Assembly: GCA_016217665.1 (NCBI GenBank)
Contig: JACRHF010000041.1
Coordinates: 1-52,271 of the forward strand
Direction of reading: 5' to 3'
DNA: 52,271 bases
From: Nitrospirota bacterium
GTDB taxonomy: Bacteria > Nitrospirota > 9FT-COMBO-42-15 > HDB-SIOI813
Part shown: one piece after another, positions 29,386 through 50,049 of the stretch
Position numbering within the stretch: the stretch's first letter is position 1
How the letters are laid out: every line of letters starts with the position of its first letter
The notes under the pieces: model-generated
What the model was told of the DNA's origin: nothing
What the model saw: the letters and a program-made list of their open reading frames with translations, nothing else
Databases searched by the model: none
Translations under genes and position numbers: made by a program

Positions 29386-30810
29386 ATGATGCTAAAAGAG
29401 ATTGATGAAAGAACCGGCACTTTGTTATATGGATGGCTATTACTTGCCATCTCTTCTCTCGTATTTGCAGGGGTTTTTGCCTTTTTGATAGCCATGTCAA
29501 GGACCCCTCTGATTCAGGATTTTTTCTGGATAAAGGATTTTTTTCATAAAGGTCTTGTAGGCCATGTGATCCTGGCTTTTGTAATCTGGTTCCTCTCTTT
29601 TATGGGTGTGCTCTCGATAGTCTCTGCAGGATTAATTAGAAAAGGGAACTCCGGATTCAAGATGGGGTGGATAGGCCTTTTTAGTTCTTCAATAGGTACG
29701 TTTATGATAATAATCTCCACCCTCTCCGGATGGGGTTCTCCAAGACTTGCCAATTACATCCCTGTCTTGACCCATCCCATGTTTTATTTAGGGCTATTTC
29801 TTTTTGCTGCCGGCATATTTCTCCTTCTACTTGATATCCTACCAAATATCTTTAAGGACATTAACGAAAATGGGTCATCACTGATTGCCCATGGTATGGC
29901 CATAGCCGGGTTAACGGTCTTAATCGCCTTTATATGCTTTGGACTTGCATACTATTTTCTCCCCTCGCCGCAAATAGAAGGAGTTAATTTTGAGCTCCTC
30001 TTCTGGGGGGGGGGACATATACTTCAATTTACTAATACCATTTCGATGGTCGTTGTGTGGATTTTTTTGCTTCATTTAACCCTGGGGATTTTTCCCCTGC
30101 GGGAAGGCCTCATAAGAGTCCTTTTATGGGCCTATCTCTTATGTGTCCTTCCCGCCCCTCTTTACTTTTTCATTTATGACATCTCCACCCCGGAATATAA
30201 AAACAGCTTTACCCGTCTTATGGAATTTGGCATCGGTCCTCCAACAGGGATCATTATTATATCTATTATAGCGGCAATCATAAGACAGAGGATTCAGAAT
30301 AGAGAAAAACTCCCCTGGGGAAATCCCATGTTCTCTTCACTTGCCTTGTCTGTCTTAGTCTTTACACTGGGCGGGGTTATCTCCATGACCATAAGGGGTA
30401 GTAATGTGAAGATACCGGCCCACTATCATAGCGTAATAGGTGCAGTGACCCTTGCCTTTATGGGCATTACCTATCATCTCCTATCTTTGATAGACAGAGA
30501 GATCTATATGAAAAAGATTGGCAGGATTCAGCCTTATTTGTATGGTATGGGTGTATTAATATTTTCCCTGGGGCTCTTCTGGGCAGGTTCACACGGGGTT
30601 CCAAGAAAGACTGCCGGGGTTGCACAGAATCTTGATTCATACGGTAAGCTTGCTGGAATGGGTCTTATGGGACTCGGAGGGATTATTGCAATACTGGGAG
30701 GCGCAACCTTTGTCATTAATGCCATTTTCTCACTGTTAAAACGTAGAAAGACAGAAAATGTTGGGGCAGAAGAGGAGACTTATGGTAAAGAATATTCTGT
30801 CAATATTTAA
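29386..30810 (+). CDS. heme-copper oxidase subunit-I homologue lacking two of the three CuB histidines (paralogue A)
   Basis: 12-TM protein with the helix-II His (GLVGHVILAF), helix-VI LFWGGGHILQF and helix-X AHYHSVIG. Where B-family enzymes have HH, it has PLYFFIYDISTPEY. It is a paralogue of 44095-45492. Confidence 0.75.
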   Translation: MMLKEIDERTGTLLYGWLLLAISSLVFAGVFAFLIAMSRTPLIQDFFWIKDFFHKGLVGHVILAFVIWFLSFMGVLSIVSAGLIRKGNSGFKMGWIGLFSSSIGTFMIIISTLSGWGSPRLANYIPVLTHPMFYLGLFLFAAGIFLLLLDILPNIFKDINENGSSLIAHGMAIAGLTVLIAFICFGLAYYFLPSPQIEGVNFELLFWGGGHILQFTNTISMVVVWIFLLHLTLGIFPLREGLIRVLLWAYLLCVLPAPLYFFIYDISTPEYKNSFTRLMEFGIGPPTGIIIISIIAAIIRQRIQNREKLPWGNPMFSSLALSVLVFTLGGVISMTIRGSNVKIPAHYHSVIGAVTLAFMGITYHLLSLIDREIYMKKIGRIQPYLYGMGVLIFSLGLFWAGSHGVPRKTAGVAQNLDSYGKLAGMGLMGLGGIIAILGGATFVINAIFSLLKRRKTENVGAEEETYGKEYSVNI

Positions 30811-31639
30811 GATCAGGATAGGGATGCTGATCTCTTTCAGTGCTGTGGCAGGATATATTGTTGCTGAAAAGGGGACACCTTCTTTCCCCAGGATTTTCCT
30901 TCTTGCTGTGTTGACCCTTATGGCATCAGCCGGCGCAGGCGCTTACAATCAATACTACGACAGAGACATAGACGCGGTTATGAAAAGAACGGATAACCGC
31001 CCGTTACCATTGGGGGGAATCCGCTTAACTCATGGTGTAGCTTTTGCAGGAATCTTCCTCATCTTCCTGTCAGTTATCGGTGCCTTTTTCACTTTAAATT
31101 ACGTAGTATCACTGCATCTGTTTCTCGGTGCCTTTGTCTATGCAGTTATATACACAGTGTGGCTTAAGAGGCGAAGCTGGATCAATATAATAATCGGCGG
31201 GTTATCCGGCAGTTTTGCCGTACTTGCCGGAGGGGCGTCAGCGAACCCGGGGTTTTGTCTGCCTCCGATACTCCTTGCTGTTGTCTTATTTTTCTGGACT
31301 CCATCTCACTTCTGGAGTTTTGCTATAGTCCATAAAGAGGATTATCAAAAGGTCGGCATCCCAATGCTCCCTGTTATCCTCGATAATCATAAAAGCGCTT
31401 TATTGATACTATTAAACACCTTGTTCCTGTTTATCTCCTCACTGTTTCTTCTCTTTTTCGGCCATCTCGGTTTAATTTACGGTGTAATCGCCGTGTGTAC
31501 AGGAGTCTTTTTTATTGGAAGAAATCTTCAGCTCCTGATAAACCCAACAAAAGAAATCGCGTGGAAGAATTTTAAGGCATCTATAATCTATTTATCAATA
31601 ATCTTCATCGCTGTGATAGTAGACGTCAGTCTGAGCTAA
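30782..31639 (+). CDS. cyoE: protoheme IX farnesyltransferase (heme O synthase)
   Basis: UbiA-family motif NQYYDRDIDAVMKRTDNRPLP. A GAGGAG Shine-Dalgarno precedes the ATG at 30782. Confidence 0.88.
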   Translation: MVKNILSIFKIRIGMLISFSAVAGYIVAEKGTPSFPRIFLLAVLTLMASAGAGAYNQYYDRDIDAVMKRTDNRPLPLGGIRLTHGVAFAGIFLIFLSVIGAFFTLNYVVSLHLFLGAFVYAVIYTVWLKRRSWINIIIGGLSGSFAVLAGGASANPGFCLPPILLAVVLFFWTPSHFWSFAIVHKEDYQKVGIPMLPVILDNHKSALLILLNTLFLFISSLFLLFFGHLGLIYGVIAVCTGVFFIGRNLQLLINPTKEIAWKNFKASIIYLSIIFIAVIVDVSLS

Positions 31640-31641: not shown

Positions 31642-32553
31642 ATGATAAAAGGAATAAAAGGAATAAAAGGAATAATATTATCTATCCTGATCGTCTATTT
31701 TTATTTCACTACGATTACCCCTACCTTTTCCTCCGCCTTTGCCTCACAGCCTGAAGATTCAGAGGCGATCAGAGCAATGATGGCTGCTGAACAGTCAGTA
31801 GGGAAACAGATAGTGGATTATGTTTTTACAGACCAGGATGGAAACAGGTTTCATTTAAAGGATCTGTATAACAAACCTCTCATTATCAGTTTTGTCTACA
31901 CAAATTGTCCCCATACCTGTTCAACGATTACAGCAAGCCTGGCCGCTGCAGTAAAAGAAATCGAGAATCCACAACCCCCCCTTAATCCCCCTTTACTAAA
32001 GGGGGAAAGAGGGGGATTTGATGTTATGACCATAGGATTTGATTATGAGAGAGATACACCAGAGAGGATGCTGGAGTTTGGCAAGAGATTTACTAATGAC
32101 TTTAGCCACTGGAAGTTTGTAACTGCAGATAGAGATACCATCGAAAGATTCTCAAGGGATATTGGATTTTATTACACCAAAAGAGGGAATGATTTTAGTC
32201 ATTTAAATATGATCTCTATGATAGCAGGTGGGAAAGTATATCAACATATTTACGGGGTCAATATTAAGAGCAGTGATATTGTTACTCCATTAAATGAACT
32301 ATTGACAAAGAGAAGCGAAGGAAAAAGGCTGGCAAATCCTATAGGCTGGCGGGACAGGCTGATAACCATGTGTTCTTTGTACGATGAGTCTACTCAGACT
32401 TACAGGATCAATTACTACTATATAATCAGATTCTTTTTAGAACTTATGTCTCTCGCTGCTATCTTTTTCTTCATGTGGAAGAGGGAGGTCTATTCCCTTT
32501 ATACCCGTGTGATGATGACAATGGTAAGGATAAAAAGGAGAGGATATGCGTAA
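31642..32553 (+). CDS. SCO1/SenC copper chaperone with an in-frame repeat insertion and a C-terminal TM extension
   Basis: Thioredoxin-like CPHTC motif and conserved His (FSHLN). The insert is PQPPLNPPLLKGERGGFD. The N-terminus carries IKGIKGIKG from a 9-bp x3 tandem repeat (31645-31671). Confidence 0.8.
   Translation: MIKGIKGIKGIILSILIVYFYFTTITPTFSSAFASQPEDSEAIRAMMAAEQSVGKQIVDYVFTDQDGNRFHLKDLYNKPLIISFVYTNCPHTCSTITASLAAAVKEIENPQPPLNPPLLKGERGGFDVMTIGFDYERDTPERMLEFGKRFTNDFSHWKFVTADRDTIERFSRDIGFYYTKRGNDFSHLNMISMIAGGKVYQHIYGVNIKSSDIVTPLNELLTKRSEGKRLANPIGWRDRLITMCSLYDESTQTYRINYYYIIRFFLELMSLAAIFFFMWKREVYSLYTRVMMTMVRIKRRGYA
31973..32019. repeat. G/C-run palindromic element inside the SCO1 gene
   Basis: AACCCCCCCTTAATCCCCCTTTACTAAAGGGGGAAAGAGGGGGATTT, read in the same frame (PLNPPLLKGE) as the lipB copy. 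Confidence 0.85.
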
Positions 32554-32781: not shown

Positions 32782-33306
32782 ATGCCGATAACATCTCCTG
32801 AAAAATACTGGTGGAAACCAGCAGATAAGGAAGAAAAAATATGGATTTCCATCGCATTATTATGGTGCCTTGTGCTGACGATCATGATGCCCCTTATGCA
32901 TCTAATAGGTACTCAGAACCCTTCAGTCAATCCGATGAAGATCAGACCACAGGATTACAGGACAGTGAGTGAGGCATTTATAGAAAAATATAAGGTTGGA
33001 GAAGAGCAGGGTATTCCTGTTGTTGAACCACCTGATGGCGCAGATGTGTACCTTAGGGCGCAGATGTGGACATGGACTCCTATACTGAAACTCAAGAAGG
33101 GTGTAAATTATAAGTTCCATATATCGTCAGTGGACCTGATGCATGGATTTTCACTGATGCCGCTTGTTATGAATTTTCAGGTAGTGCCAGGCCATGACAA
33201 TATATTAAACATGACGCCTACATCAGCCGGGACATTCCATATCATCTGTAATGAGTTTTGTGGGATAGGCCACCATACAATGGTAGGTAAAATAATCGTG
33301 AGTTAG
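32782..33306 (+). CDS. B-family-type HCO subunit II (single TM plus cupredoxin with a CuA site)
   Basis: VDLMHGF and CNEFCGIGHHTM give the H...C-x3-C-x3-H-x2-M CuA ligands. Size and layout resemble ba3 subunit II. Confidence 0.85.
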   Translation: MPITSPEKYWWKPADKEEKIWISIALLWCLVLTIMMPLMHLIGTQNPSVNPMKIRPQDYRTVSEAFIEKYKVGEEQGIPVVEPPDGADVYLRAQMWTWTPILKLKKGVNYKFHISSVDLMHGFSLMPLVMNFQVVPGHDNILNMTPTSAGTFHIICNEFCGIGHHTMVGKIIVS

Positions 33307-33369
33307 GGGAGGAACTGCCTCTTTCTGTGCAGCATTCTCTAACACTTTTGGAAAAGGGGGGTAGAAAAG

Positions 33370-34905
33370 ATGGCAAGTGAATTAGTGTTTAGAACCTGTC
33401 CCATTACAGGGAAAAAGGTTTATGCAGTCACTCAAAACCTGATATGGATAAATGCAGTAACAGCAGTAGTGTTTATCCTTGTAGGCGGGATAATGGCATT
33501 TCTGGTTGGGATGACACGCTGGCCTGCAGTCCATCTGCTGCCTGCTGACCTGTTTTATAGATTCCTGACAGCCCATGGACTGAATATGCTCATATTCTGG
33601 ATCATATTCTTTGAGATAGCAGGTCTATATTTCGGATCTTCAGTTTTGCTTAATTCAAGACTTGCGGCGCCAAAGGTTGCATGGCTGGCATATATCCTGA
33701 TGCTTGTTGGGGCAGTTCTGGTTGATATCATGGTATTCACCGGTAAGGCAGACGTAATGTTCAGCTCTTATGTCCCGTTGCAGGCTGATCCGAAATACTA
33801 CCTTGGGATTATCCTTTTTGCTGTCGGCGCCCTGATAGGATGCGGCATCTTTTTTGGGACATTGGCAATAGCCAAGGCAGAAAAGACCTATGAGGGGTCT
33901 GTTCCTCTGGTCACTTTTGGTTTAGCTGCGGCTGCCATCATTGCTGTTTTCACCCTCGCATGTGGCGCCATAATTTATATACCGACATTCCTGTGGTCTC
34001 TTGGGCTGATAACAAACTTAGACCCGGGTGTATACAGGTTAATCTTCTGGGGAATGGGCCATTCGTCTCAACAGATAAACGTAACAGCAATGGTCTCTAT
34101 ATGGTATCTCTTAGGAGCGTTGACTGTTGGGGCAAAGCCTGTTAATGAGAAGATATGCAGAAGCGCATTTTTCCTTTATATCTTGTTTATCAATCTTGCT
34201 TCAGAGCATCACCTTCTGACAGACCCTACTTTAAGTCCGTACCATAAGATGGTAAATACCTCTTACTTCATGTATCTGGCGGTGCTTGCCAGTATGATCC
34301 ATGCCCTGGCAATCCCAATGATGGTTGAGGTTGCCCAGCGGAAGAAGGGATTTACAAAAGGACTATTTGAATGGCTCACAAAGGCGCCATGGGGCGAACC
34401 TGGTTTTCCAGCCATGATCTTTTCCCTCTTCATATTCGGTTTTATAGGTGGTATCACAGGTGTGGTCTATGGTACAGAACAGCTCTCCATAAAGAGTCAT
34501 AACACATGGGCTATGACTGGTCATTTCCACGCTACTGTTGTAGGTGGAACCACCCTTGCCTTTATGGGCCTTACCTATTATGTGATTCCCCTCATCTTCA
34601 GGCGGGAGCTTATCGGGAAAAAACTGGCTGTCGTCCAGCCGTATATCTTTGGCATTGGAATAATTCTGATTGCATTAGGTATGGGAGGCGCTGGAACACT
34701 GGGTTCACCAAGAAGACACTGGGATATTACCTTTGCTCAGTCAGTTATTCCATTCTCATTTGACCCTGCTGTAATATTTTTTACAACAATAGCTGCCATA
34801 GGTGTATTAACCGCAGTGACAGGCGGGGCCATGTATGTTGGTGTGTCTGTGCTTTCAGTTTTCTTTGGCAGGAAGATGGCCGCCAATGAGGCCAAACTAT
34901 TATAG
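33370..34905 (+). CDS. B-family-like HCO subunit I lacking the His-Tyr cross-link tyrosine (candidate NO reductase or atypical oxidase)
   Basis: Helix VI reads FWGMGHSSQQINV (Gln where ba3 has Tyr). The CuB pair is retained (ASEHHLLTDPTLSPYHKM). Helix X reads TGHFHATVVGG. Confidence 0.8.
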   Translation: MASELVFRTCPITGKKVYAVTQNLIWINAVTAVVFILVGGIMAFLVGMTRWPAVHLLPADLFYRFLTAHGLNMLIFWIIFFEIAGLYFGSSVLLNSRLAAPKVAWLAYILMLVGAVLVDIMVFTGKADVMFSSYVPLQADPKYYLGIILFAVGALIGCGIFFGTLAIAKAEKTYEGSVPLVTFGLAAAAIIAVFTLACGAIIYIPTFLWSLGLITNLDPGVYRLIFWGMGHSSQQINVTAMVSIWYLLGALTVGAKPVNEKICRSAFFLYILFINLASEHHLLTDPTLSPYHKMVNTSYFMYLAVLASMIHALAIPMMVEVAQRKKGFTKGLFEWLTKAPWGEPGFPAMIFSLFIFGFIGGITGVVYGTEQLSIKSHNTWAMTGHFHATVVGGTTLAFMGLTYYVIPLIFRRELIGKKLAVVQPYIFGIGIILIALGMGGAGTLGSPRRHWDITFAQSVIPFSFDPAVIFFTTIAAIGVLTAVTGGAMYVGVSVLSVFFGRKMAANEAKLL

Positions 34906-35099: not shown

Positions 35100-35140
35100 G
35101 GGGTATACCCTCGGGGCGCATATAGATAGTTTCTGAATGG

Positions 35141-35186
35141 GCAGTAATTTTATCATGATGCTATGATAAAATTACTGCTTTTTTTT
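35141..35186 (+). terminator. strong rho-independent terminator
   Basis: GCAGTAATTTTATCAT / GATGCT / ATGATAAAATTACTGC (16-bp stem), followed by T8. Confidence 0.85.
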
Positions 35187-35350: not shown

Positions 35351-37465
35351 ATGGGTTCTTTAGGAAGAAGAATCGTACATACTATTGATGGTTGGACAGA
35401 TCGTATCATCCCGCCTAAATATAATCCATTATACTGGCTGGGCACACTATGTTTCGTTTCCCTGATGCTGATACTTATAACCGGTAGTTACCTGTTTTTA
35501 TTTTATAAGACCGGCGCCCCTTACGAATCAGTTCAGTACCTTACTGTCAACCAATGGTATATTGGCGGCTATTTGCGGAGTATACACCGCTATGCCTCTG
35601 ACGGGTTAATTTTGTTCATGACGCTTCACCTCGTGCGTGAGTTTCTTCTCGGCAGATACCGTCAGTGGAGATGGTTATCCTGGGTTTCAGGTGCTGCCCT
35701 CCTGGTTGCCTGTCTTATCCTTGGAATTATGGGATACTGGCTGGTTTGGGATGGACGGGCCCAGTTAATTGCCCAGAAGACCGCCCAATTACTTAATGAT
35801 ATCCCAATATTTGTTGAGCCACCTTCACGCTCATTTTTAAGTGGTGATACCATCAGCAAGATGTTGTTCTTTGTCCTCCTTCTGGGACATATAGGCATAT
35901 CACTGATAGGTATCAGCGCTTTAGTATTTATACATACATCGAGAAATGCCAGGCCAGTGCTTAAACCTCCGCGCGCAATTTCTGTTGCACTAGTGATTGT
36001 GCTCTCTGCATTATCCTTCATTGTCCCGGCTACTAATGCCCCAATGGCTGATCTGGCTAAGCTGCCAATTAATATTCCTTTTGATTGGTTCTTTTTATTT
36101 GTGTATCCATTAACCTCTGCCCTGTCGAAGCGGGCCTTCTGGTTCACATCCGCCAGCGGCGCCTTATTACTTTTTACAGCGCCATGGATTGGAAGATTCA
36201 GAAAGCCTCCGGCAGCACAGGTAATTCTGGAGAAGTGTGTCGGTTGTGAGCAATGCAATAAAGACTGTCCCTATGAAGCCATCAGAATGGTCCCCAGAAA
36301 AGACGGGAGGCCATATCTCCTGCAGGCAGAGGTGCTGGTTAACAGGTGTGCAAGTTGCGGTATCTGTGTCGGCTCATGTGATTCTAAAGCGGCTGACCTT
36401 CCTGACAGGACATTGGAGCAAACAGAAAAGGAGATAACCAGACTTTTAAATCTGCCGCAAAAGCAGGGTAGTGGGCCAAAGATACTGGGTCTGGTATGTG
36501 AAAAGAACATCAGGCTGGATAAGTTTATAAATGCAGAAAACAAAAGTCTTAAAGGGATGCCAAATGTTTTCGTTATTACATTCGTCTGTTCCGGTATGAT
36601 TCATCACTCCACGATTGAATATGCCCTTGCATCAGGTGCAGAGGGTGTATTTGTAAGCGGCTGTCAGATAGAGGAATGTTACTACCGTGAAGGTTCCAGG
36701 TGGTCGCATGCAAGGTTGATGGGAGAGAGGGCGCCTGTTGTCTTACCATTGAAAGGCACAACAAGCGACTACTCACGAATCCGTTCATACCGGCTATCTC
36801 CTCTCCGGGCCAAAGACCTCATAAATAAGATAGGTCTCTTTCAAAAAGAACTTGAGCAGAAAACTTCTGTCAGGGCCTACAGGCCTATAGAGACTATGAT
36901 ACCCGGGGAAGGGACATACAAGAAAGTGGCGGCACTTTGCATTATTCCACTGCTTTTGCTGCCTGCCTTCCTCATCTCCTTTCTGTCCACAAAACCAACA
37001 TACCCTTTCTATAGCAAAGACAACGCGTTAATAAAATTTACCTTCCAGCATTCTGGTAAACAGGAGGATTGTAAGGAAATAACTGAGAAAGAAACAGAGA
37101 GTAAACTTAAACATATGAGGAAGACAAACTCCCCTTATTCCCGCATGAGGATGGATTGTGCGAGAAAGAGGCTTCCCAGTTATGTAGAGTTAGATTTAGA
37201 CAGGAGAAATATATTATCCAGGGTCTATCACCCTACAGGCCTGAGCGGTGACGGGTCCACATTTGCCTATGAGGAAATACCTATAGCCCCAGGGACACAT
37301 GAAGTCACGGTCAGAATGAGGGATACCAAAGATGTCAGCAATTTTGACTATAACTTTGAAAAGAAAATAAACCTTGAAGCAGGACAAGTCGCTGTCATTG
37401 ATTTTGACAGTGATAACAATAAATTTCACATCATGGGGCAGAGTGAGGAGGAAAAAGGTGAATAA
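35351..37465 (+). CDS. fusion protein: dihaem cytochrome b6-like membrane domain, 2x[4Fe-4S] ferredoxin domain, MvhD/FlpD-like domain, an extra TM and a ~170-aa C-terminal domain
   Basis: Haem His pairs IHRYASDGLILFMTLH and GHIGISLIGISALVFIH. A PEWY-like PFDWFFLFVYP. CVGCEQCNKDCP and CASCGICVGSCD. FlpD-like VCSGMIHHSTIEYALASGAEGVFVSGCQIEECYYREGS. Confidence 0.8.
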   Translation: MGSLGRRIVHTIDGWTDRIIPPKYNPLYWLGTLCFVSLMLILITGSYLFLFYKTGAPYESVQYLTVNQWYIGGYLRSIHRYASDGLILFMTLHLVREFLLGRYRQWRWLSWVSGAALLVACLILGIMGYWLVWDGRAQLIAQKTAQLLNDIPIFVEPPSRSFLSGDTISKMLFFVLLLGHIGISLIGISALVFIHTSRNARPVLKPPRAISVALVIVLSALSFIVPATNAPMADLAKLPINIPFDWFFLFVYPLTSALSKRAFWFTSASGALLLFTAPWIGRFRKPPAAQVILEKCVGCEQCNKDCPYEAIRMVPRKDGRPYLLQAEVLVNRCASCGICVGSCDSKAADLPDRTLEQTEKEITRLLNLPQKQGSGPKILGLVCEKNIRLDKFINAENKSLKGMPNVFVITFVCSGMIHHSTIEYALASGAEGVFVSGCQIEECYYREGSRWSHARLMGERAPVVLPLKGTTSDYSRIRSYRLSPLRAKDLINKIGLFQKELEQKTSVRAYRPIETMIPGEGTYKKVAALCIIPLLLLPAFLISFLSTKPTYPFYSKDNALIKFTFQHSGKQEDCKEITEKETESKLKHMRKTNSPYSRMRMDCARKRLPSYVELDLDRRNILSRVYHPTGLSGDGSTFAYEEIPIAPGTHEVTVRMRDTKDVSNFDYNFEKKINLEAGQVAVIDFDSDNNKFHIMGQSEEEKGE

Positions 37466-38771
37466 TGTATCAGACCATAGGGTATTACTGACGAGGGATA
37501 TCCCTATGAGTGACTTCCCCTCTTTGGAAACAATCTTTATAGACATGTATGTTGCAAAGAATGGTTATAAGGCAGCGACTAAAGCCCTTCAGGAGATGAA
37601 GCCAGGAGATATTATCGAGGAAGTAAAGAAGTCTGGATTGCGTGGTCGTGGCGGCGGTGGATTCCCAACAGGAAAAAAATGGGAAATGGTGGCCGGAGCA
37701 GCAGGAGAGGAAAAGCATGTCTGCTGCAATGCCGCCGAGGGGGAACAGGAAACATTTAAAGACCGGTGTCTTATACGTTCAAACCCGCATCAATTAATTG
37801 AAGGAATCATTATTGCCTCCTATGCAGTCGGTGCCCATGTGTCTTATTTATATGTCAATGAAAACTATCGTGAAGAGATTACGTTGCTTGAGAAGGCGCT
37901 AAAAGAGGCTCAGGGAAAAGGGTATATCGGTAAAAAAATTCTGGGAACAGATTTCTCACTGGATATTCATATTCAGAAGTGTCCTGATCAATATGTTGCT
38001 GGCGAAGAAACGGCAATGATAGAGGTCATAGAAGGCAGGGCGGCCAAGCCATGGCAAAAGCCCCCTTATTATCCTGCTAACAGGGGCATCTATGGAAATC
38101 CGACCCTTGTAAATAATACAGGAACCTTGTCAAACATACCTCATATTGTCCTTAAAGGCGGCGATTGGTTTTCTCAAGTCGGCTCTCGACAGAACCCAGG
38201 AACAATGCTTTTTACCCTCACCGGTGATATAAACAGACCTGGTATATATGAGTTGCCACTGGGAACCACACTTAGCAAACTTATCAGCAATTGTGGTAAT
38301 GGTTTAAAGGATGGGAGAAGATTTAAGGCAGCCTTTCTGCCGGGTAATTCCCCTCTCACAGAATCACATCTTGAAATCCGCCTTGACTTTGAATCATTAA
38401 AAGAGGCCGGCTCAGGGCTCGGTTGTGCTGCTGTCACTGTCCTGGGGGATGGAACCTGTGCAGTAGCTACAACACTGAAATTTTCCAGGTTTTTTATGAA
38501 TGAGTCATGCGGACAATGCCCCCCCTGCCAGATGGGAACTGCCAATATGGCCATACTGCTTCAGAAAATTGAAGATGGTCATGGAAAAATAGAAGACCTT
38601 GCCGCCATTGAAAACATATGCAGCCTTTCAAAGGGGCAGGGCTACTGTCAGCTTCTATCAGGGGCTGTCTTTGTTGTTGAAGGTGCAATCAGACACTTCA
38701 GAAAGGAGTTTGAGGCCCACATCCATGAAAAGAGATGTCCTCTGCAAAGCAGTTCCGGCAATACGTTATAA
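37458..38771 (+). CDS. NuoF-like NAD(P)H-binding FMN / [4Fe-4S] flavoprotein
   Basis: GLRGRGGGGFPTGKKW (FMN/NADH site), GEETAMIEVIEG, and N3-type cluster ESCGQCPPCQMG...C. The GTG at 37458 has a GAGGAGG Shine-Dalgarno and overlaps the upstream stop (GTGAATAA). Confidence 0.8.
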   Translation: MNNVSDHRVLLTRDIPMSDFPSLETIFIDMYVAKNGYKAATKALQEMKPGDIIEEVKKSGLRGRGGGGFPTGKKWEMVAGAAGEEKHVCCNAAEGEQETFKDRCLIRSNPHQLIEGIIIASYAVGAHVSYLYVNENYREEITLLEKALKEAQGKGYIGKKILGTDFSLDIHIQKCPDQYVAGEETAMIEVIEGRAAKPWQKPPYYPANRGIYGNPTLVNNTGTLSNIPHIVLKGGDWFSQVGSRQNPGTMLFTLTGDINRPGIYELPLGTTLSKLISNCGNGLKDGRRFKAAFLPGNSPLTESHLEIRLDFESLKEAGSGLGCAAVTVLGDGTCAVATTLKFSRFFMNESCGQCPPCQMGTANMAILLQKIEDGHGKIEDLAAIENICSLSKGQGYCQLLSGAVFVVEGAIRHFRKEFEAHIHEKRCPLQSSSGNTL

Positions 38772-38783
38772 AATCTACTTAGA

Positions 38784-40274
38784 TTGAAGAAATTATCCCT
38801 CTATATTGAAGACTGGGCCAACAGGTGTTTCTCGCCCCGATTCAATCCCTTCTATTACCTTGGAGCAATATCCACCCTCTTTTTCATTATCCTGTTAATA
38901 AGTGGTATATACCTGTTTATATTTTACAGGACCAACAGCCCTTATCAGATAGTCCAGGATTTAACTGAAAAACAATGGTATCTGGGTGGCATTATGAGGA
39001 GTATTCATAGATATGCCTCTGATGGCCTGATAATCTCCCTCCTCCTGCATACCCTGCGTGAATATGTTAACGGTAGATACAGTCACTACAGATGGCTGGC
39101 CTGGGTCTCCGGCGTTATACTTTTTATTATCAGTTTGATATTAGGTATTTCAGGCTACTGGCTGGTATGGGACCAAAGGGCCCAGTTAATTGCCCTGAAG
39201 ACATCAGAACTGTTAAATGATGTGCCCCTTTTTATTGAACCTCCATCCAGGTCTTTTCTCAGCAATGAGTCCCTCAGTGGAATGCTCTTTTTCCTTTTGC
39301 ATTTTTTGCATTCAGCTTTACCGTTTGCCATGCTGATACTCATAGGCATACACATCATGAGATGTTCACGCCCGGTACTCAAGACACCTAAGGTTATAAC
39401 GATTGCTGTAATAATCATGCTGCTTATGGTATCTGTTATTAAGCCTGCCACCAGCGCCAAACCTGCAGACCTGAATAGATTACCCCTAACCCCCCCGTTT
39501 GATTGGTTCTTCTTTTTCATATACCCGGTGAAGTCTATTCTTTCAAAACCCATCTTCTGGTCGATGACTACAGGTGTAATCATGATACTCTTTATAATAC
39601 CCTGGATTAAAAGGCATAGGCCGCCTGTTGCACAGGTTGTATTAGAAAACTGCACAGGCTGTGACCAGTGTAATAAGGATTGTCCCTATGGGGCCATCCG
39701 TTTACAGCCCCGCACAGACAGGTTAGCCTATAAAATGGAGGCTGTTATTATGCCTGAGAGATGTGCTGCCTGCGGTATATGTGTAGGAGCCTGCGATTTT
39801 AATGCCGTCAATCTCCCTGGTATGAATGATGTACAGATTAAGGAAGATATAATCAATCTTTTATCTGGCATTCAACGGATAGACAAAAAACCAAAGATAC
39901 TGCTGTGGGTCTGCAAACAAAGCATAAGATTTAATGGTACATTGGATATCATAAAAAGGATGACAAATGTTAAAATTATATCATTGCCCTGTATTGGCAT
40001 GATTCAATCTGAGATGATAGAGGCAGGATTTAATGCCGGCGCAGACGGTATTTTTATCTGCAGTTGCGTGATGGGTGATTGTCAGTACCGTAAAGGCAAC
40101 ATCTGGCTGCAGGAAAGGCTGAGAGACAAAAGACCGCCGCTACTGAATAAAAGAGTTGACCGACGTAGAATCAGGGAATACTGGATGTCGCCTGTCCATA
40201 CTACAAGACTTGTTGCAGAAATAGATCTCTTTGAAGAGGAGCTTAGTGCCTATCATATATCCGGATCTACTTAA
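38784..40274 (+). CDS. paralogous cytochrome b6-like / 2x[4Fe-4S] / MvhD-like fusion (shorter; no C-terminal extension)
   Basis: IHRYASDGLIISLLLH, LHSALPFAMLILIGIH, PFDWFFFFIYP, CTGCDQCNKDCP, CAACGICVGACD, PCIGMIQSEMIEAGFNAGADGIFICSCVMGDCQYRKGN. The apparent start is TTG with no obvious Shine-Dalgarno. Confidence 0.75.
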   Translation: MKKLSLYIEDWANRCFSPRFNPFYYLGAISTLFFIILLISGIYLFIFYRTNSPYQIVQDLTEKQWYLGGIMRSIHRYASDGLIISLLLHTLREYVNGRYSHYRWLAWVSGVILFIISLILGISGYWLVWDQRAQLIALKTSELLNDVPLFIEPPSRSFLSNESLSGMLFFLLHFLHSALPFAMLILIGIHIMRCSRPVLKTPKVITIAVIIMLLMVSVIKPATSAKPADLNRLPLTPPFDWFFFFIYPVKSILSKPIFWSMTTGVIMILFIIPWIKRHRPPVAQVVLENCTGCDQCNKDCPYGAIRLQPRTDRLAYKMEAVIMPERCAACGICVGACDFNAVNLPGMNDVQIKEDIINLLSGIQRIDKKPKILLWVCKQSIRFNGTLDIIKRMTNVKIISLPCIGMIQSEMIEAGFNAGADGIFICSCVMGDCQYRKGNIWLQERLRDKRPPLLNKRVDRRRIREYWMSPVHTTRLVAEIDLFEEELSAYHISGST

Positions 40275-40885: not shown

Positions 40886-43807
40886 ATGAAGGCAGTGATG
40901 AGTCGTACGCGAAGTCAGGAACTTGTCAACGGGTCGCTGGTGAGGCATTGGGCCATCTGGTCCCTGATCTGGCTTACCATCTTTCCCCTGATGGGGCTCT
41001 TGGTCTCGATCAAATTTCACGAGCCTGACTTCCTCGGAGGTATCCCGTGGCTAACCTTTGGAAGGATGCGTCCTATCCATGTGAATGGGGTCATCTTCGG
41101 TGCATTTTCTACCAGTTTTTTCGCCTTGCTCTACTACTTTGTTCCCAGACTCTGTGGGGCCCGGATGTACAAAGAGGAGTGGGGATGGTGGCTGCTGTGG
41201 CTGTGGAACGCATTTCTTATCCTGGGTTCCATCTCCTTTATGATGGGATACAACTCGGGTGTAGAGGCCGCGGAGTATCGGTGGCCGCTTAACATCCTGC
41301 GTTTTGCCGTGTTGTCTCTGATTGCAATTCAGGTCCTGGGGACCATCTTACGCAGAACAGAAAAGCGATTCTACGTGGCCATGTGGTATACCACTGCCGC
41401 CGTCATCTGGACCCTGATGAATCTGATTCTGGGTAATGTCCTGCTCCCTTATGCCCAGGCCTTCACAGGGGTCAACAGTGCGGCTATGCACGGATTGTAT
41501 ATCCATTACATTGTAGGTCTGTGGCTCACACCGGGCGGGCTGGCAATCATCTATTATTTTCTCCCCCTGAGTGCAAAGAACCCGCTTTACAGCCACCGGC
41601 TTTCCCTTCTGGGTTTCTGGTCTCTGGCCTTCTTCTACCCCTTTGTTGGAATCCACCATTATCTCTACAGCCCGATTCCAATCATGTCGCAAACGCTCTC
41701 GATCGTCACCAGCATGCTCTTGATCATCCCGGTCTGGACGGTGACAGTGAATTTCTTCGGGACGATGAAGGGCCGTTGGGGAGCTGTCCTGGGAGGAGGG
41801 GGGGGTGATAACTACGCCGCCAAGTTCTTCATGCTGGGGGCCGTGTATTACCTGCTCGGTTGTTTTCAAGGTTCCACCGAGGCCCTTCGCCGGATCCAGC
41901 AACTGACCCATTTTAATGATTTCGTGATCGGCCACTCTCACCTCACTGTCTTTGGAACCATGGTCGTGTGGGCCATCGGCGGGCTTTATTATGTGTGGCC
42001 CAGGGTTACCGGAAGGGAATTATGGAGTGACCGGTTGGCAAGCTGGCATCTATGGTTGACCATCACGGGATTTAGTGTGATGACGATCGTCCTTACGACG
42101 ATGGGATTTGTCCAGGGTTCGATGCTGGAGTACCAGGCCAATTTTGTTGATACGGTTAAAGAGATGCAGGGCTGGTGGATTGCCCGGACCCTTTCCGGGG
42201 CCGTAATGGATATCGGGTTCATCCTGATGATGATCAATTGTTACAAGACGGTGCAGAAGGGAAAGGTCTTAAAGGGTGAAGTCCCTGAGGGTCCCCTTTG
42301 GGAGGAGGAAACCCCTGTTCGCACAACAGTCAGGGGACGTTGGATGGAGACCCCCTCTACAGTCTTCCTGGCGGCAGGGTTGGGTTTCTTCTTTCTGGCT
42401 GTCTTTGTTCAGGGAATCATTCCCTGGTTGATACCTGAGACCCGCGCGACCACGGTAGCAGATTCCGTGACCAGGAAGCAGATCCAGGTGGCCGACTACA
42501 CCCCTCTCGAACTTCGGGGGAGAAGGGTCTACATCCGGGAGGGATGCTGGTACTGTCATTCTCAATATACCCGCGCGGTTACGGGAGAATCCTTCCGGTG
42601 GGGACCGGTCTCCCAGGCGGGGGAATATGTCCATGATCTCCCTCATCTTTTCGGCACCCGGCGAATCGGCCCGGATCTGACACGCGTCGGGTGTAAATAT
42701 GGAGACGATTGGCATATTGCCCATCACTGGAACCCCCGTCAGATCGTCCCGGATTCGATTATGCCCTCGTTCCCCTGGCTGTTTGAGCCTTATAGGGGGG
42801 ATGCCCCGCCGCAGATGAACGAAGATGGAAAGGCCCTGGTGGCCTATATTCAACGATTGGGAACCTCCATTGGTGATTGGCGGGAGGGATTCACTCCAAC
42901 CCGGCTCTCCTCAGGGGGAGCGCTCAATCTGGACCCGGACGAAAGGGAGGAACTGATCTCACGGGGCAAAGCGGTCTTTGAACGGCGGTGTGCCGGCTGC
43001 CACGGCAATAAAGGGGATGGAAACGGGCCGGCGGCCCGCTTTTTGGACCCTAAACCCCGGGACTTCACCCGTGGCCTATTCAAATTCCGGTCCACGCCAG
43101 GCAAGGACTCTCTCCCCACAGATGCCGATCTCTTCATCACGGTCACTCATGGCCTGTGGGGGACCGCCATGCCACCCTGGCAGGACATCCCGGAGTCTGA
43201 GCGGTTTGCCGTGATCCAGTATATCAAGACCTTCTCTGACCGTTGGCAAAAGGAACCGGTGGATATCCCCATCCCTGTTCCGATAGAGCCCCTGGTCACA
43301 AAGGCCTCGATCGAGAACGGAGAGGCCCTCTTCCACGGCAAGGCCATCTGTTTCATGTGCCATGGGCCGGCCGGAAAAGGGGACGGTCTTCTGGCCGGGG
43401 GGCTCAAAGACACATGGGGTCATCCCATACGACCGGCTGATTTCACCCTCTCGGCTGGGGTCCATGGAGGTGTCAAGCTGGGTCATGATGGAGAACACAT
43501 CTTTAAGACGGTAATGACCGGTGTAGGGGCGACCCCCATGATCCCCTTCCAGGATCAGCTCACCCCGGAACAGGTGTGGGATGTCGTTCACTATGTCCAA
43601 TCCATCCGCATCCAGGCCCATGCATCTGAGTTGATTGCTGCAGGACTGAATACAAAGGATCGTGAAGAGGCGCTGTCCCGGATCTGGGCCTCGCTATCGG
43701 ATGCCGCGGCTCATAAACGCATTGATCAGGAAGTGATACAGATGCAGCTATCCCATCTCAGGGAGAAGGGGATTCACATAGCGGAGGGGAATACCCCGGG
43801 GAGGTGA
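40886..43807 (+). CDS. ccoNOP: cbb3-type oxidase with CcoN, CcoO and a dihaem cytochrome c (CcoP-like) fused in one 973-aa polypeptide
   Basis: CcoN part: RPIHVNGVIFG, YIHYIVGLWLT, VGIHHYLYSP, VIGHSHLTVFG. CcoO part: YIREGCWYCHSQYTR...GTRRIGPDLTRVG. Two further haem sites: CAGCHGNKGDG and CFMCHGPAGKGDG. Confidence 0.85.
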   Translation: MKAVMSRTRSQELVNGSLVRHWAIWSLIWLTIFPLMGLLVSIKFHEPDFLGGIPWLTFGRMRPIHVNGVIFGAFSTSFFALLYYFVPRLCGARMYKEEWGWWLLWLWNAFLILGSISFMMGYNSGVEAAEYRWPLNILRFAVLSLIAIQVLGTILRRTEKRFYVAMWYTTAAVIWTLMNLILGNVLLPYAQAFTGVNSAAMHGLYIHYIVGLWLTPGGLAIIYYFLPLSAKNPLYSHRLSLLGFWSLAFFYPFVGIHHYLYSPIPIMSQTLSIVTSMLLIIPVWTVTVNFFGTMKGRWGAVLGGGGGDNYAAKFFMLGAVYYLLGCFQGSTEALRRIQQLTHFNDFVIGHSHLTVFGTMVVWAIGGLYYVWPRVTGRELWSDRLASWHLWLTITGFSVMTIVLTTMGFVQGSMLEYQANFVDTVKEMQGWWIARTLSGAVMDIGFILMMINCYKTVQKGKVLKGEVPEGPLWEEETPVRTTVRGRWMETPSTVFLAAGLGFFFLAVFVQGIIPWLIPETRATTVADSVTRKQIQVADYTPLELRGRRVYIREGCWYCHSQYTRAVTGESFRWGPVSQAGEYVHDLPHLFGTRRIGPDLTRVGCKYGDDWHIAHHWNPRQIVPDSIMPSFPWLFEPYRGDAPPQMNEDGKALVAYIQRLGTSIGDWREGFTPTRLSSGGALNLDPDEREELISRGKAVFERRCAGCHGNKGDGNGPAARFLDPKPRDFTRGLFKFRSTPGKDSLPTDADLFITVTHGLWGTAMPPWQDIPESERFAVIQYIKTFSDRWQKEPVDIPIPVPIEPLVTKASIENGEALFHGKAICFMCHGPAGKGDGLLAGGLKDTWGHPIRPADFTLSAGVHGGVKLGHDGEHIFKTVMTGVGATPMIPFQDQLTPEQVWDVVHYVQSIRIQAHASELIAAGLNTKDREEALSRIWASLSDAAAHKRIDQEVIQMQLSHLREKGIHIAEGNTPGR

Positions 43808-44094: not shown

Positions 44095-45492
44095 TCACCT
44101 CTTGTTTCGGAGGAGTGAGGCGAGGGAATTTACAATAAACAGGATTCCCCCGAGGATGGCTATGCCGCCGCCGATGCCTACGAGGATCATCCCTGCCATT
44201 TTTGCGGCATTGTCCAGCTGCTGTGCCGCGCCAAAGGTCTTGCGGGCCACACCATGGGCGCCTGCCCAGTAGAGGCCGAGGACAAAGAGGGCTTGACCCG
44301 TTCCATAGATATAGGGCTGAATAGCCGCGAGCCTCCGGCTATAGGTCTCCCTTTCCAACAGAGAGAGGAGATGGTTTGTCAGCCCCATGAATGCAAGGGT
44401 GACCCCTCCGATAGCGCCGTGGTAGTGGGAAGGTATCTTTGTGTTATATCCGTATATCTTAAACGATATCAGGCCCCCGAGTCCAAAGAGGATCATTGAA
44501 ATAACCAGCGAAGAGAACTCAGGCCTGTTCCAGGGGAGACCTTTGAACCTCCTTGAGGCGATAAGGGCCAGGATGGCCATGGAAAAAATAGCGGTAGAGG
44601 GTCCGAGTCCGTACTCCATAAGGCCGGTGAAGAACCGGATGTATTCAGGGCTGGAAGTATCAAAGAAGAGGTATATGAACGGTGCCGGGAGAATAAATAT
44701 CAGATAAAGCAGATAGAGCCCCTTCGAATAGCTGTCCCTCATCGGGAACTTTTTAAAGACAAGGCTTGTAAGAAAAAGCCACACGGTCATCATGGTAATG
44801 GTATTGGTAAACTGGAGCACATGCCCCCCGCCCCAGAAGAGGAGTTCCAGATTAAGCGGCATCTTTTGGGATGGCGCCACAACCTGGAAGTAGTATGACA
44901 GCCCAAAGCAGGCGGCTGCGCTGAGGCCGGCTGTCCCTGAGATCGCCATCCCGAAGGTCAGCAAGGGGAGACGGCCCTCATAGCTCTTCTCCTGCCATGC
45001 CTTCCCAATGGTTAAGAAGGTATTGATCAGGGTCAGGATGATCCCTGAGGCCAGTAACAGGAGTCCTGTATAAAAGAGGGGGTGTGTCAAGACAGGGATG
45101 TAATTGATGAACTGCGGGTCGCCTGTGCCGGAAGCCGCGGCAATAATGACAAGCAGGGCGCCGGCAACCGAGAAGAGGAGCCCGCCCCAGCCTAACGTCT
45201 TATTAAACAGTGTGGTGTTTAGAAGAACAGTGCTGGTCCATGTCCATAAGAGCCCCTCAAATGCCAGGAACCAGATGCTAAAGGATAAGGTGACATGTCC
45301 CACTAAGGCGACGCGTATATAATCCGGCCGGGGGAGGAGGCTATGGACAAAGGGGGTTCTTGCCGCGACGATCATGAATGCAAATATCCCGGCAAACATC
45401 AGTGAGGCGACGGCAAAGGTTAGCCAGCCGTAGAGCAGTTTCCGCGTACCTTCATCCAGACTGTTTTTATCAGCATTCATCCTGATCATCAT
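44095..45492 (-). CDS. heme-copper oxidase subunit-I homologue lacking two of the three CuB histidines (paralogue B)
   Basis: Colinear with 29386-30810: LLYGWL, ALVGHVTLSF, NYIPVLTHP, ELLFWGGGHVLQFTNTI, PAPFIYLFFDTSSPEY (no HH), KIPSHYHGAIGGVTLAFMG, IQPYIYG. Confidence 0.75.
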   Translation of the reverse strand: MMIRMNADKNSLDEGTRKLLYGWLTFAVASLMFAGIFAFMIVAARTPFVHSLLPRPDYIRVALVGHVTLSFSIWFLAFEGLLWTWTSTVLLNTTLFNKTLGWGGLLFSVAGALLVIIAAASGTGDPQFINYIPVLTHPLFYTGLLLLASGIILTLINTFLTIGKAWQEKSYEGRLPLLTFGMAISGTAGLSAAACFGLSYYFQVVAPSQKMPLNLELLFWGGGHVLQFTNTITMMTVWLFLTSLVFKKFPMRDSYSKGLYLLYLIFILPAPFIYLFFDTSSPEYIRFFTGLMEYGLGPSTAIFSMAILALIASRRFKGLPWNRPEFSSLVISMILFGLGGLISFKIYGYNTKIPSHYHGAIGGVTLAFMGLTNHLLSLLERETYSRRLAAIQPYIYGTGQALFVLGLYWAGAHGVARKTFGAAQQLDNAAKMAGMILVGIGGGIAILGGILFIVNSLASLLRNKR

Positions 45493-45611: not shown

Positions 45612-46067
45612 ATGTTCAGACTGAGCAGGGCCGCAGAGTATGGCGTGAGGGGGATCCTTTATCTTGCCAGCAACTATTCTGAAGACAAGGTCTCTGTGAT
45701 CGAAGAGATATCAAAGGCGCAGGATGTCCCGTTGCCTTATATGGCGAAGCTGTTTCAGACATTGGCCAGGAAGGGGTTTGTTAAGTCGTTCAAAGGGCAG
45801 AAGGGTGGGTTTGTCCTTACCAGGCATCCGAAAGAGATCAGCCTGTTGGAGGTGATAGAGGCGATGGAAGGACCTATCTTCTTAAATGTCTGTCTTTTTC
45901 ATGAGGGTTATTGTCCAAGAGATAAGGTGTGTTCTGTCCATGAGGTATGGGCAGAGGCGCAGAAAAGGCTTGTAGATTATCTAAGGGGGTGTAACTTTGC
46001 AGAGATGGCAATCTCGGCAGCAAAGAAAACAAAAGCGTTTAATCAAAAGAAAGGAGGGCCAAAATGA
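45612..46067 (+). CDS. Rrf2-family Fe-S cluster transcriptional regulator (NsrR/IscR-like)
   Basis: N-terminal wHTH (RAAEYGVRGILYLA...ISKAQDVPLPYMAKLFQTLARKGFV) and cluster ligands CLFHEGYCPRDKVCSVH. Confidence 0.85.
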   Translation: MFRLSRAAEYGVRGILYLASNYSEDKVSVIEEISKAQDVPLPYMAKLFQTLARKGFVKSFKGQKGGFVLTRHPKEISLLEVIEAMEGPIFLNVCLFHEGYCPRDKVCSVHEVWAEAQKRLVDYLRGCNFAEMAISAAKKTKAFNQKKGGPK

Positions 46068-46094: not shown

Positions 46095-46874
46095 ATGACC
46101 ATGAACGAATATGCAGTAGAACATGAGATCTCAGGCCATGAGCCGCATTGGGAGACAAGCCCTTGGCCCCTGGTGCTGAGTATGGCAATGCTGTTCGTCT
46201 TTCCCTTTGCCTTTTCCCTCTATTTTGTATACGGCAAGCCGATCATGGCGATCCTGTCATTAGGGATCGGCATCCCATTGACAGTACTGTCTGTGGCAGG
46301 CTGGATCAGCGAAGGGGTGGGACAGACGCGGGAACCTGGTTATAGCGTCAAGGCGATGCCCTTCTTCATCGTGGCAGAGGCGTTTATCTTTGTCGCCTTT
46401 TTTGTGGGCTACTGGGTGATGCGGCTGAGCGCCTCATCCTGGCCGCCGGCCGGGACGCCGGAGATCGCGCTCACGGTTCCCATCATTATGACCATTGTCC
46501 TGGTATCCTCCAGTTTTACGATCCATCTCAGTGAGCAAAAGATGGAACATGGCGACAGGGGCGGATTCCTGATGTGGCTCATTGTCACGATCATCCTCGG
46601 CACACTCTTTCTCGGTCTCTCCATGAATGAATATTCCCATCTCTTTGCCGAAGGCTTTAATTTTAAGACCAATGCCTACAGCACAGCCTTCTTTTCCATC
46701 ACAGGCTTCCATGCCTCTCATGTATTTGTCGGGATAGCGATGTTCATCTGCATCCTGATACCGGCGCTGATGGGGAAGATGAGCAAGAGCTTTGTGAAAT
46801 CGGCATCCATGTATTGGCACTTTGTGGATATTATCTGGTTTTTTGTAGTGACTCAGGTCTATTTTTGGTCATGA
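46095..46874 (+). CDS. ctaE: A-type cytochrome c oxidase subunit III
   Basis: 7-TM protein; FFSITGFHASHVFVG and YWHFVDIIWFFV are typical of Cox3. Confidence 0.85.
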   Translation: MTMNEYAVEHEISGHEPHWETSPWPLVLSMAMLFVFPFAFSLYFVYGKPIMAILSLGIGIPLTVLSVAGWISEGVGQTREPGYSVKAMPFFIVAEAFIFVAFFVGYWVMRLSASSWPPAGTPEIALTVPIIMTIVLVSSSFTIHLSEQKMEHGDRGGFLMWLIVTIILGTLFLGLSMNEYSHLFAEGFNFKTNAYSTAFFSITGFHASHVFVGIAMFICILIPALMGKMSKSFVKSASMYWHFVDIIWFFVVTQVYFWS

Positions 46875-46900
46875 TCTGAGGAGATGTAGGGGGGAAGGGC

Positions 46901-47722
46901 GTGAGAAAGTTAGCGATCGTTATCTCCTGGATACTCCTATTAATAACTCCGCAGGCCGCATCCGCTGAGTATGGGGTCATCCCGGAATCTGCGATGGATC
47001 CCTCGGTTGTAAAAATAGATGAGGAAAAATACTTGGGTACCCGGCTCTCAGGGGACTATATCTTAATCGATGAGAGCGGGAAAGAGTTTCAACTGAGGGA
47101 TATCACAGGAAGACCTGTCATTCTTCTCCTCTCCTATTTTTCTTGCAATGGTCTTTGCCCGACGGCCAATCAGGGGTTGAAGGACGCCCTTTCAGCCCTA
47201 AACAGGCTTAAGATCGGAGAAGATTTCAGGGTACTGACGCTCTCCTTTGATAAAAAGGACGACGCCCAGAGTATCCGGATGTTTTCCGAAATGGCCGGCC
47301 TGAAAGGATGGTCTGGTAAGGGTTGGAAGGTCGCTATCCTGAAAGATGGAGAGGATATTGAAAGACTGACCAGGGACGTGGGTTTCAAATTCTTCTGGTC
47401 ATCGAGGGATAAGATGTTTCTTCACCCCAATGTCTTCATCTTCCTGTCGCCCGAGGGGAGGGTCGTGAGATACCTCTATGGCACACCCCCCAAGACAAGG
47501 GATCTGGAGCTTGCCCTCACTGAGGCGGCTGAGGGGAAGGCCGCTGGCTCAGGAATCATCGACTTTGTCAGTATGGCCTGTTATAGTTTTAACTTCAAGG
47601 AGGGGAGATATACCGTCAACATCCCCATCTTCATTGGACTCGGTTCCCTGCTGTTGGGGATCTCCTCCATCGTGGTACCCATTGTAGTCTTAAGAAGAAG
47701 AAGAAAGGAGGCAGGGTCATGA
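46901..47722 (+). CDS. SCO1/SenC copper chaperone with a C-terminal TM extension
   Basis: CNGLC motif and conserved His (FLHPN). GTG start. The C-terminal CYSFNFKEGRYTVN + TM parallels the other SCO copy. Confidence 0.8.
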   Translation: MRKLAIVISWILLLITPQAASAEYGVIPESAMDPSVVKIDEEKYLGTRLSGDYILIDESGKEFQLRDITGRPVILLLSYFSCNGLCPTANQGLKDALSALNRLKIGEDFRVLTLSFDKKDDAQSIRMFSEMAGLKGWSGKGWKVAILKDGEDIERLTRDVGFKFFWSSRDKMFLHPNVFIFLSPEGRVVRYLYGTPPKTRDLELALTEAAEGKAAGSGIIDFVSMACYSFNFKEGRYTVNIPIFIGLGSLLLGISSIVVPIVVLRRRRKEAGS

Positions 47723-48390: not shown

Positions 48391-48405
48391 AAGGGGGGTA
48401 GAACC

Positions 48406-50025: not shown

Positions 50026-50049
50026 CCGTAAAGGTAATACCTCGGTGGA

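Follow-up and report, generated by a model that had tools for sequence, protein, structure and literature searches.

Cytochrome b/iron–sulfur/MvhD fusion proteins flanking a NuoF-like flavoprotein in a Nitrospirota genome: a candidate electron-transfer accessory of eNOR-type nitric oxide reductase

A stretch of 52,271 nucleotides from a Nitrospirota bacterium (GenBank assembly GCA_016217665.1, contig JACRHF010000041.1; the whole stretch is hereafter called the window) was analysed for a group of three genes in which two paralogous cytochrome b/FeS/MvhD fusion genes (P1 and P2) enclose a NuoF-like gene. This arrangement had been proposed in a preliminary description made from the sequence, and was borne out by the open reading frames (ORFs) and by Pfam searches. 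The genes of the trio, their parts and the elements that delimit them are as follows.

35139–35180, + strand: terminator-like hairpin, a 19-bp stem followed by a T-run, between the gene for eNOR subunit I and P1
35351–37465, + strand: P1, cytochrome b/FeS/MvhD fusion, 704 aa
35351–36205: cytochrome b core of P1
36215–36400: two [4Fe-4S] motifs of P1
36482–36853: FlpD/MvhD domain of P1
36920–36991: seventh transmembrane (TM) helix of P1
37025–37432: predicted periplasmic beta-sandwich of P1
37458–38771, + strand: NuoF-like gene, likely GTG start at 37458 (mechanical ORF from 37374)
38784–40274, + strand: P2, cytochrome b/FeS/MvhD fusion, 496 aa, with no periplasmic tail
38784–39623: cytochrome b core of P2
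39630–39806: two [4Fe-4S] motifs of P2
39900–40247: FlpD/MvhD domain of P2
40267–40740, − strand: TM-anchored rhodanese, convergent with P2

The stop codon of P1 and the GTG start of the NuoF-like gene share an 8-nt overlap, GTGAATAA, which was read directly from the DNA and confirms the overlap from which translational coupling had been proposed; GAGGAGG sits 6 nt 5′ of the GTG, and the identical 8-nt overlap was seen at the related locus L088. The unit had also been described as starting after a terminator and ending against a convergent rhodanese gene, and both the terminator-like hairpin with its T-run and the minus-strand rhodanese gene were found in these places. The P2 and rhodanese genes overlap by 8 nt, the rhodanese carries an N-terminal TM helix, and a rhodanese gene occupies the same position at every NuoF-type locus (L005–L008, L088 and L090).

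In Pfam searches, both P1 and P2 matched Cytochrome_B / Cytochrom_B_N_2 (E 6e-14 to 6e-19), Fer4 dicluster families and, above the cut-off, FlpD (E 3e-13 and 6e-18), and the NuoF-like protein matched Complex1_51K (5e-43), SLBB and NADH_4Fe-4S (1e-24); the matches anticipated beforehand (cytochrome b, Fer4, FlpD, Complex1_51K and NADH_4Fe-4S) were all among them. With NCBIfam profiles, the N-terminal half of P1 and P2 resembled cytochrome b6 and ExtP, and the cytoplasmic half resembled the last ~200 residues of HdrA2, namely its C-terminal ferredoxin domain with fused MvhD; solved MvhD chains likewise matched this Fer4 and MvhD arrangement. The closest solved structure was cytochrome b6 (E 6e-20), and both helix-B and both helix-D His residues fell on the b6 haem ligands, as expected of the cytochrome b core with two bis-His pairs that had been described. 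The four haem His were invariant in family alignments of 16 and then 69 homologues, as were, in the alignment of 16, all eight Fer4 Cys and four Cys of the FlpD domain. The spacing of the pairs had to be corrected, as that of helix D differs between the paralogues, being 15 in P1 (residues 180/195) and 14 in P2 (residues 176/190). A helix-D spacing of 15 is found in P1-type proteins as in b6f, and one of 14 in P2 and most other members of the family as in bc1.

A Qo-like pocket on the periplasmic side is conserved in each copy. The PFDWF motif keeps D and W invariant among the homologues, the WD of the cd-loop is invariant in the family, and a profile of residues 100–282 (the C-terminal half of the membrane core) placed (P/L)DWF on bovine KPEWYF, in agreement with the PEWY-like variant recognised earlier; the same profile also matched b6f subunit IV. 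In b6f a Cys binds haem cn covalently; here Tyr stands in its position (FYYLGA in the query, FYCLGG in b6).

In an AlphaFold2 model of P1 (pLDDT 81.8, pTM 0.79), the six core helices are followed by the FeS and FlpD domains, then by the seventh TM helix and last by a beta-sandwich (residues 559–694), and Foldseek placed bc1 cytochrome b at the top of its matches to this model, with ~300 aligned columns. By model and topology, the FeS and MvhD domains are predicted to be cytoplasmic and the tail of P1 periplasmic, which supports the proposal of an extra TM helix and a C-terminal domain across the membrane. No Pfam or NCBIfam match was obtained for the tail, and Foldseek gave only generic Ig/CBM-like sandwiches, and no conserved metal-ligand pattern was seen in the tail itself. 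A redox role of the tail was dropped because the beta-sandwich has no conserved metal or redox ligands, and the tail is probably structural. P2 lacks both the seventh helix and the beta-sandwich; P2 orthologues downstream of NuoF have both (682–719 aa), and the nearest relatives of P2 are likewise short (455–521 aa, 86–91% identity).

The FMN loop (GRGGGGFPTG) and the four N3 Cys (CxxCxxC...C) of the NuoF-like protein are intact in an alignment to HydB/Nqo1, and its score of 458 lies below the NCBIfam equivalog cut-off of 558. It belongs to a distinct NuoF clade of ~35 clusters with at least 63% identity, to which canonical Nitrospirota NuoF shows only 51–55%; within the clade, the canonical CNADEGDPG becomes CNAAEGE(P/Q)(G/E), the Asp of NADE being replaced by Ala in most members. 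Contigs bearing NuoF of this clade were equal in length to fusion-bearing contigs. Among 82 loci of the fusion gene, NuoF was found at five, and on two further contigs, all from Nitrospirota or Nitrospinota, and the order P1–NuoF–P2–rhodanese was repeated in L005–L008, L088/L089 and L090.

Partners encoded in the window were sought by a motif scan and by Pfam searches that covered almost every non-nested ORF of 120 aa or more. No gene for a Rieske protein, NuoE, any other nuo product or HdrA was found in the window by these means, which confirms what had been claimed for Rieske, NuoE and HdrA. Rieske was also absent from the Pfam lists of L001, L088 and L090, and neither the window nor the related loci examined encode HdrA or a hydrogenase as a partner for MvhD.

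P1 and P2 arose by lineage-specific duplication of a membrane protein that is widespread and for which we coined the name BFD. A word-indexed search gave more than 3,500 relatives that share the fused architecture, in Nitrospinota, Nitrospirota and 'Deltaproteobacteria' metagenome-assembled genomes, an exhaustive HMMER search gave 414 clusters (50% identity) at E ≤ 1e-30, and a scan with one genome per species gave at least 593 matches and added Gallionella, Zetaproteobacteria, Acidiferrobacter, Sulfuricaulis, Rhodospirillales, Magnetococcus and Rokubacteria. A Ferrigenium preprint of May 2026 calls its two cytochrome b fusion genes 'rather unusual' (bioRxiv 10.64898/2026.01.22.701106); such genes were in fact present in more than 590 species in the one-genome-per-species scan.

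Conservation of the neighbourhood was counted by tblastn on DNA, independently of ORF calling, at those 53 of the 82 loci that were non-redundant and had 5 kb or more of upstream DNA. The following were found near the fusion gene.

Relative of window ORF 33370–34905 (COX1-like, eNOR subunit I): 50 of 53 loci
Relative of window ORF 32782–33306 (COX2-like, eNOR subunit II): 50 of 53 loci
SCO1: 49 of 53 loci
P1 tail domain, either fused or encoded by the next gene: 51 of 53 loci
Haem o synthase: 33 of 53 loci
Second divergent oxidase-like gene: 24 of 53 loci
Ferredoxin-FNR fusion: 9 of 53 loci
NuoF: 2 of 53 loci

A previous count by longest ORFs (eNOR at 38 of 49 loci) was discarded because antisense shadow ORFs had displaced real genes in high-GC loci. 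The commonest gene order was subunit II, subunit I, (CtaB), SCO1, fusion, tail, and the same order is carried by a Defluviimonas plasmid, one cultured example from a plasmid search. On a ~3-Mb contig, the fusion gene follows COX1 and SCO1 with NuoF not nearby; in the present window, the gene order is rearranged, yet eNOR, CtaB, SCO1 and the fusion are still adjacent. Co-conservation of the three genes, which had been set as a check, holds within a Nitrospirota/Nitrospinota clade and does not extend to the family, given the NuoF count above. The neighbours of the trio on its upstream side are as follows.

26762–27772, + strand: NirK-type copper nitrite reductase, a source of nitric oxide (NO), at the head of the island (Pfam Cu-oxidase_3/_2)
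29386–30810, + strand: divergent haem-copper oxidase (HCO) subunit-I-like protein without the HH CuB pair (Pfam COX1, E 4e-26, and motif comparison)
30758–31639, + strand: haem o synthase, CtaB/CyoE (NCBIfam TIGR01473, 270 bits, above cut-off)
31642–32553, + strand: SCO1/SenC copper chaperone (Pfam SCO1-SenC)
32782–33306, + strand: eNOR subunit II, a cupredoxin (Pfam COX2) with the full CuA motif
33370–34905, + strand: eNOR subunit I, a B-family-related haem-copper enzyme (alignment to Thermus thermophilus ba3)

NirK was also found upstream of the same cluster in L088 and L008. In subunit II, the CuA motif CNEFCGIGHHTM and the upstream His were read from the translation. In the alignment of subunit I to T. 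thermophilus ba3, the six metal-binding His are kept and Gln stands at the position of the cross-linked Tyr237; the motif GH[SP]SQQINV is invariant across the loci. Among NO reductases of the HCO type, Gln at this position marks eNOR, Asn sNOR and bNOR, and Asp gNOR (PMC8756737, Table A4), and the neighbouring oxidase was identified as eNOR because its Gln fits this rule. An identity as sNOR, at first taken from the naming 'norSY-senC-orf1' in ammonia oxidisers, was excluded because the residue is Gln, not Asn. The eNOR from Rhodothermus marinus is the only member with demonstrated NO reductase activity, and it was assayed with ascorbate/TMPD, with no mention of a cytochrome b partner (PMC11214002). 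For the enzyme of the window, NO reductase activity is predicted from the eNOR signature of its sequence.

The NAD(P)(H) link of BFD is real but lineage-specific, and it is backed by an independent fusion of the core to ferredoxin and FNR in Gallionellaceae. There, the gene beside SCO1 encodes the same cytochrome b core fused to Fer2, FAD_binding_6 and NAD_binding_1 (L080, 5746–7686; also L028, L030, L037, L046, L060 and L067), and a second paralogue of the Fer4-FlpD type lies close by. The database names of this Gallionellaceae fusion are 'FAD-binding oxidoreductase' or 'NAD(P)H-flavin reductase'. In a neighbour-joining tree, the two duplications of the cytochrome b fusion gene, in Nitrospirota/Nitrospinota and in Gallionellaceae, were independent. 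Twice the gain of an NAD(P)H module thus went together with that of an extra cytochrome b copy, which suggests that the cytochrome b is a heterodimer with a single NAD(P)(H) port.

eNOR is among the most abundant NO reductase families in metagenomes, and to our knowledge it has no established physiological electron donor. We propose, with a probability of roughly 45%, that BFD is an accessory electron-transfer subunit of the eNOR-type NO reductase, acting as a membrane wire linked to NAD(P)(H). The trio is tied to eNOR because the fusion gene lies beside eNOR I/II at 50 of 53 loci, and this linkage, the cofactor-binding motifs, the topology and the recurrent link to an NAD(P)H module form the observed part of the case. 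P1 and P2 would pair as a cytochrome b heterodimer, and NuoF would dock on their MvhD domains. The wire would then run NAD(P)H – FMN – N3 – [2Fe-2S] – 2×[4Fe-4S] – haem bn – haem bp – periplasmic face, where it would meet the quinone site and the eNOR subunit that bears CuA. Electrons are tentatively taken to flow outwards across the membrane, such that the reduction of NO draws on NAD(P)H or on some other reductant of the cytoplasm, with quinol as a possible alternative point of entry. This direction is preferred because it is downhill and because oxidation of NAD(P)H is the normal reaction of FNR-ferredoxin modules of this class; it may be likened to NOX enzymes, to Fre-MsrQ and to the NAD(P)H-driven detoxification of NO by Hmp. 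The fusion proteins of Ferrigenium were detected in the proteome under denitrifying Fe(II) oxidation (bioRxiv 10.64898/2026.01.22.701106).

Several points weigh against this proposal. The direction of the electrons and their partners are deduced, and the NAD(P)H module is missing from the gene cluster in most members of the family. A hairpin and a gap of 445 nt part eNOR I from P1 in the present window, and eNOR-like operons of Thermus and Thermomicrobium are without the fusion, so that eNOR does not depend on BFD; BFD is accordingly regarded as accessory to a large subclade of eNOR, not as a universal subunit. Moreover, a plain NAD(P)H-to-CuA wire would not need a strictly conserved Qo-like motif, and NAD(P)H spent on NO would be costly for lithoautotrophs.

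The alternative that survives best, although we consider it unlikely, is a quinol-based electron bifurcation at the Rieske-less Qo-like site within a Q-cycle-like supercomplex of BFD and eNOR. The first electron of quinol would pass to the CuA of eNOR and on to NO, and the low-potential electron would travel via the b haems, FeS centres, MvhD and NuoF (or FNR) to NAD(P)+ or ferredoxin. The invariance of the Qo-like motif and of the cd-loop WD would thereby be explained, CuA is the sole periplasmic redox centre encoded in the operon, and BFD is frequent among lineages of Fe-, S- and N-lithotrophs. The overall energetics would also be favourable, since the NO/N2O couple lies at ~ +1.18 V. It is essentially the mechanism put forward in the Ferrigenium preprint (bioRxiv 10.64898/2026.01.22.701106). 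However, the low-potential electron would have to reach −320 mV while also moving against the membrane potential, and neither a mobile head nor any other gating element like the Rieske protein is apparent. The tendency of ferredoxin-FNR modules of this class to oxidise NAD(P)H speaks for the opposite direction, and many BFD carriers come from heterotroph lineages.

The preliminary description had taken the trio for an NAD(P)H-quinone module of its own; the domains, cofactors, topology and NAD(P)(H) link that it assigned stood, and its self-contained character did not, as the conserved partner proved to be the eNOR set immediately upstream (32782–34905), accompanied by haem o synthase and SCO1. 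We regard it as improbable that P1–NuoF–P2 stands alone, as an alternative NAD(P)H:quinone oxidoreductase or a quinol:NAD(P)+ device with no functional tie to the neighbouring oxidases. All cofactor motifs for such a device are present, the terminator-like hairpin lies 5′ of P1 in this window and the three genes are co-conserved within their own clade, but across the sampled loci the fusion goes with eNOR and seldom with NuoF, and in close relatives P1 lies inside the eNOR operon, the fusion gene of L088 beginning 17 nt after SCO1. From the energetics of redox loops, transfer from NADH to a quinone on the periplasmic side would dissipate proton-motive force, and transfer from quinol to NAD+ would have the redox gap as well as the membrane potential against it.

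The least probable explanation is one of cofactor maturation, in which BFD would take the part of haem A synthase in an oxygen-independent reaction on the haem O made by CtaB, its FeS/FNR module resembling the ferredoxin and ferredoxin reductase that serve Cox15, or would aid the assembly of eNOR: BFD does adjoin CtaB and SCO1 (33 and 49 of 53 loci), purified eNOR has a modified haem a, many eNOR operons carry CtaA, most BFD loci are without CtaA and the BFD-less Thermomicrobium operon has a CtaA-CtaB fusion, but the fold is that of a bc-type cytochrome b with a quinone-site motif and is not CtaA-like, CtaA is encoded elsewhere in the window (50250–51182) and in Ferrigenium, and such a reaction is without precedent.

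The surroundings of the trio include further oxidase genes, of which the following two features lie downstream.

44095–45492, − strand: second divergent HCO subunit-I-like gene, of a family often found 3′ of the fusion gene elsewhere
46095–52066: aa3-type oxidase cluster with COX3, SCO1, COX2, COX1, CtaA and CtaB

The divergent HCO-like family (~465 aa) is represented by the window genes at 29386–30810 (+) and 44095–45492 (−), by L080 8145–9623 and by L088 11674–13068; its members retain the His of helix II, the first CuB His (FWGGGH) and the HxH haem ligands, and are without the HH CuB pair. In L088, a CbbQ/NorQ-like AAA+ gene and a further SCO1 come after the gene of this family. At 40886–43807, a cbb3-type oxidase is encoded as one polypeptide of 973 aa that comprises CcoN, CcoO (FixO) and a di-haem CcoP-like part. 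A regulator of the Rrf2 family (45612–46067) lies between the divergent oxidase-like gene and the aa3-type cluster; the Rrf2 family includes the NO-sensing NsrR regulators, and the Thermus eNOR-like operon is likewise followed by an Rrf2 gene (L087).

A gene for an outer-membrane porin of the Alginate_exp type (27800–29074) lies just 5′ of the eNOR cluster, and a porin of this type upstream of eNOR recurs in L001, L008, L010 and L090, which represent several phyla. At loci of the 'Deltaproteobacteria' type (L001, 10437–12635; L010, L011, L012 and L017), the tail gene is followed by a gene for a methyl-accepting chemotaxis protein of ~730 aa, which bears a Tll0287-like sensor domain. An IS200-like transposase gene (7055–7750, − strand) lies in the stretch of ~6000–10000, where the GC content falls from ~0.55 to 0.43.

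In the literature, the sole prior mention of such proteins that was found is the Ferrigenium preprint of May 2026, and no biochemically characterised member of BFD was found; searches on MvhD/cytochrome b fusions and on the locus tags NE0686 and Noc_1847 returned nothing useful. The architecture had been called uncharacterised, which is correct in the sense that no characterised member was found, but it had not gone wholly unnoticed, given the Ferrigenium version in that preprint. New in the present work are the breadth of the BFD family, its near-obligate tie to eNOR, the NuoF variant and the convergent recruitment of an NAD(P)H module. The occurrence of BFD in hundreds of species and its coupling to NAD(P)H twice independently suggest a specific, testable electron route for N2O production. 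Outward flow, if true, would make the complex an NAD(P)H-driven membrane NO reductase. Bifurcation, if true, would mean that NO reduction yields low-potential reductant in lithoautotrophs living on iron, nitrite, manganese or sulfur, giving them a new source of NAD(P)H that bypasses classical reverse electron transport, and BFD would provide the first demonstration of a bc-type cytochrome b that functions with no Rieske protein. Annotation is also affected, as BFD genes are now named 'hydrogenase iron-sulfur subunit' or 'FAD-binding oxidoreductase'.

Among known systems, the cytochrome b of bc1/b6f complexes shares with BFD the fold over helices A–F, the four haem His, the ef-loop motif aligned with PEWY and the WD of the cd-loop. 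BFD differs from it in having no encoded Rieske, c1 or f partner, in lacking helices G and H and the haem cn Cys, in carrying a cytoplasmic FeS/MvhD chain fused where the protein would otherwise end, and in being encoded alongside an NO reductase. The Fer4 dicluster and MvhD domain of P1 and P2 correspond to the C-terminus of HdrA2, the electron-input end of Hdr; unlike HdrA2/MvhD, P1 and P2 are without the HdrA flavin domain, HdrBC or a hydrogenase, and the module is fused to a membrane cytochrome. In NOX/FRE, Fre-MsrQ, HdrED and DsrMK, cytoplasmic flavin or FeS centres are joined to two membrane-spanning b haems and to a reaction on the far side or with quinone; their haem folds are unrelated to that of BFD (FRD/NarI type versus bc type), and the resemblance is one of analogy, not of membership. 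The subunits of the window share with the eNOR of R. marinus (PMC11214002) the replacement of Tyr by Gln, the CuA site and the B-family ancestry, whereas the characterised enzyme was described without a cytochrome b partner. The eNOR operon of Ferrigenium straubiae is alike in containing eNOR II, eNOR I, haem o synthase, SCO1 and two cytochrome b fusion genes, one of them NAD(P)H-linked, and P0158 of that organism is a direct homologue; it differs in that its NAD(P)H module consists of 2Fe-2S ferredoxin and FNR fused to the cytochrome b, whereas in the window NuoF is a separate gene between two paralogues that each carry Fer4 and MvhD.

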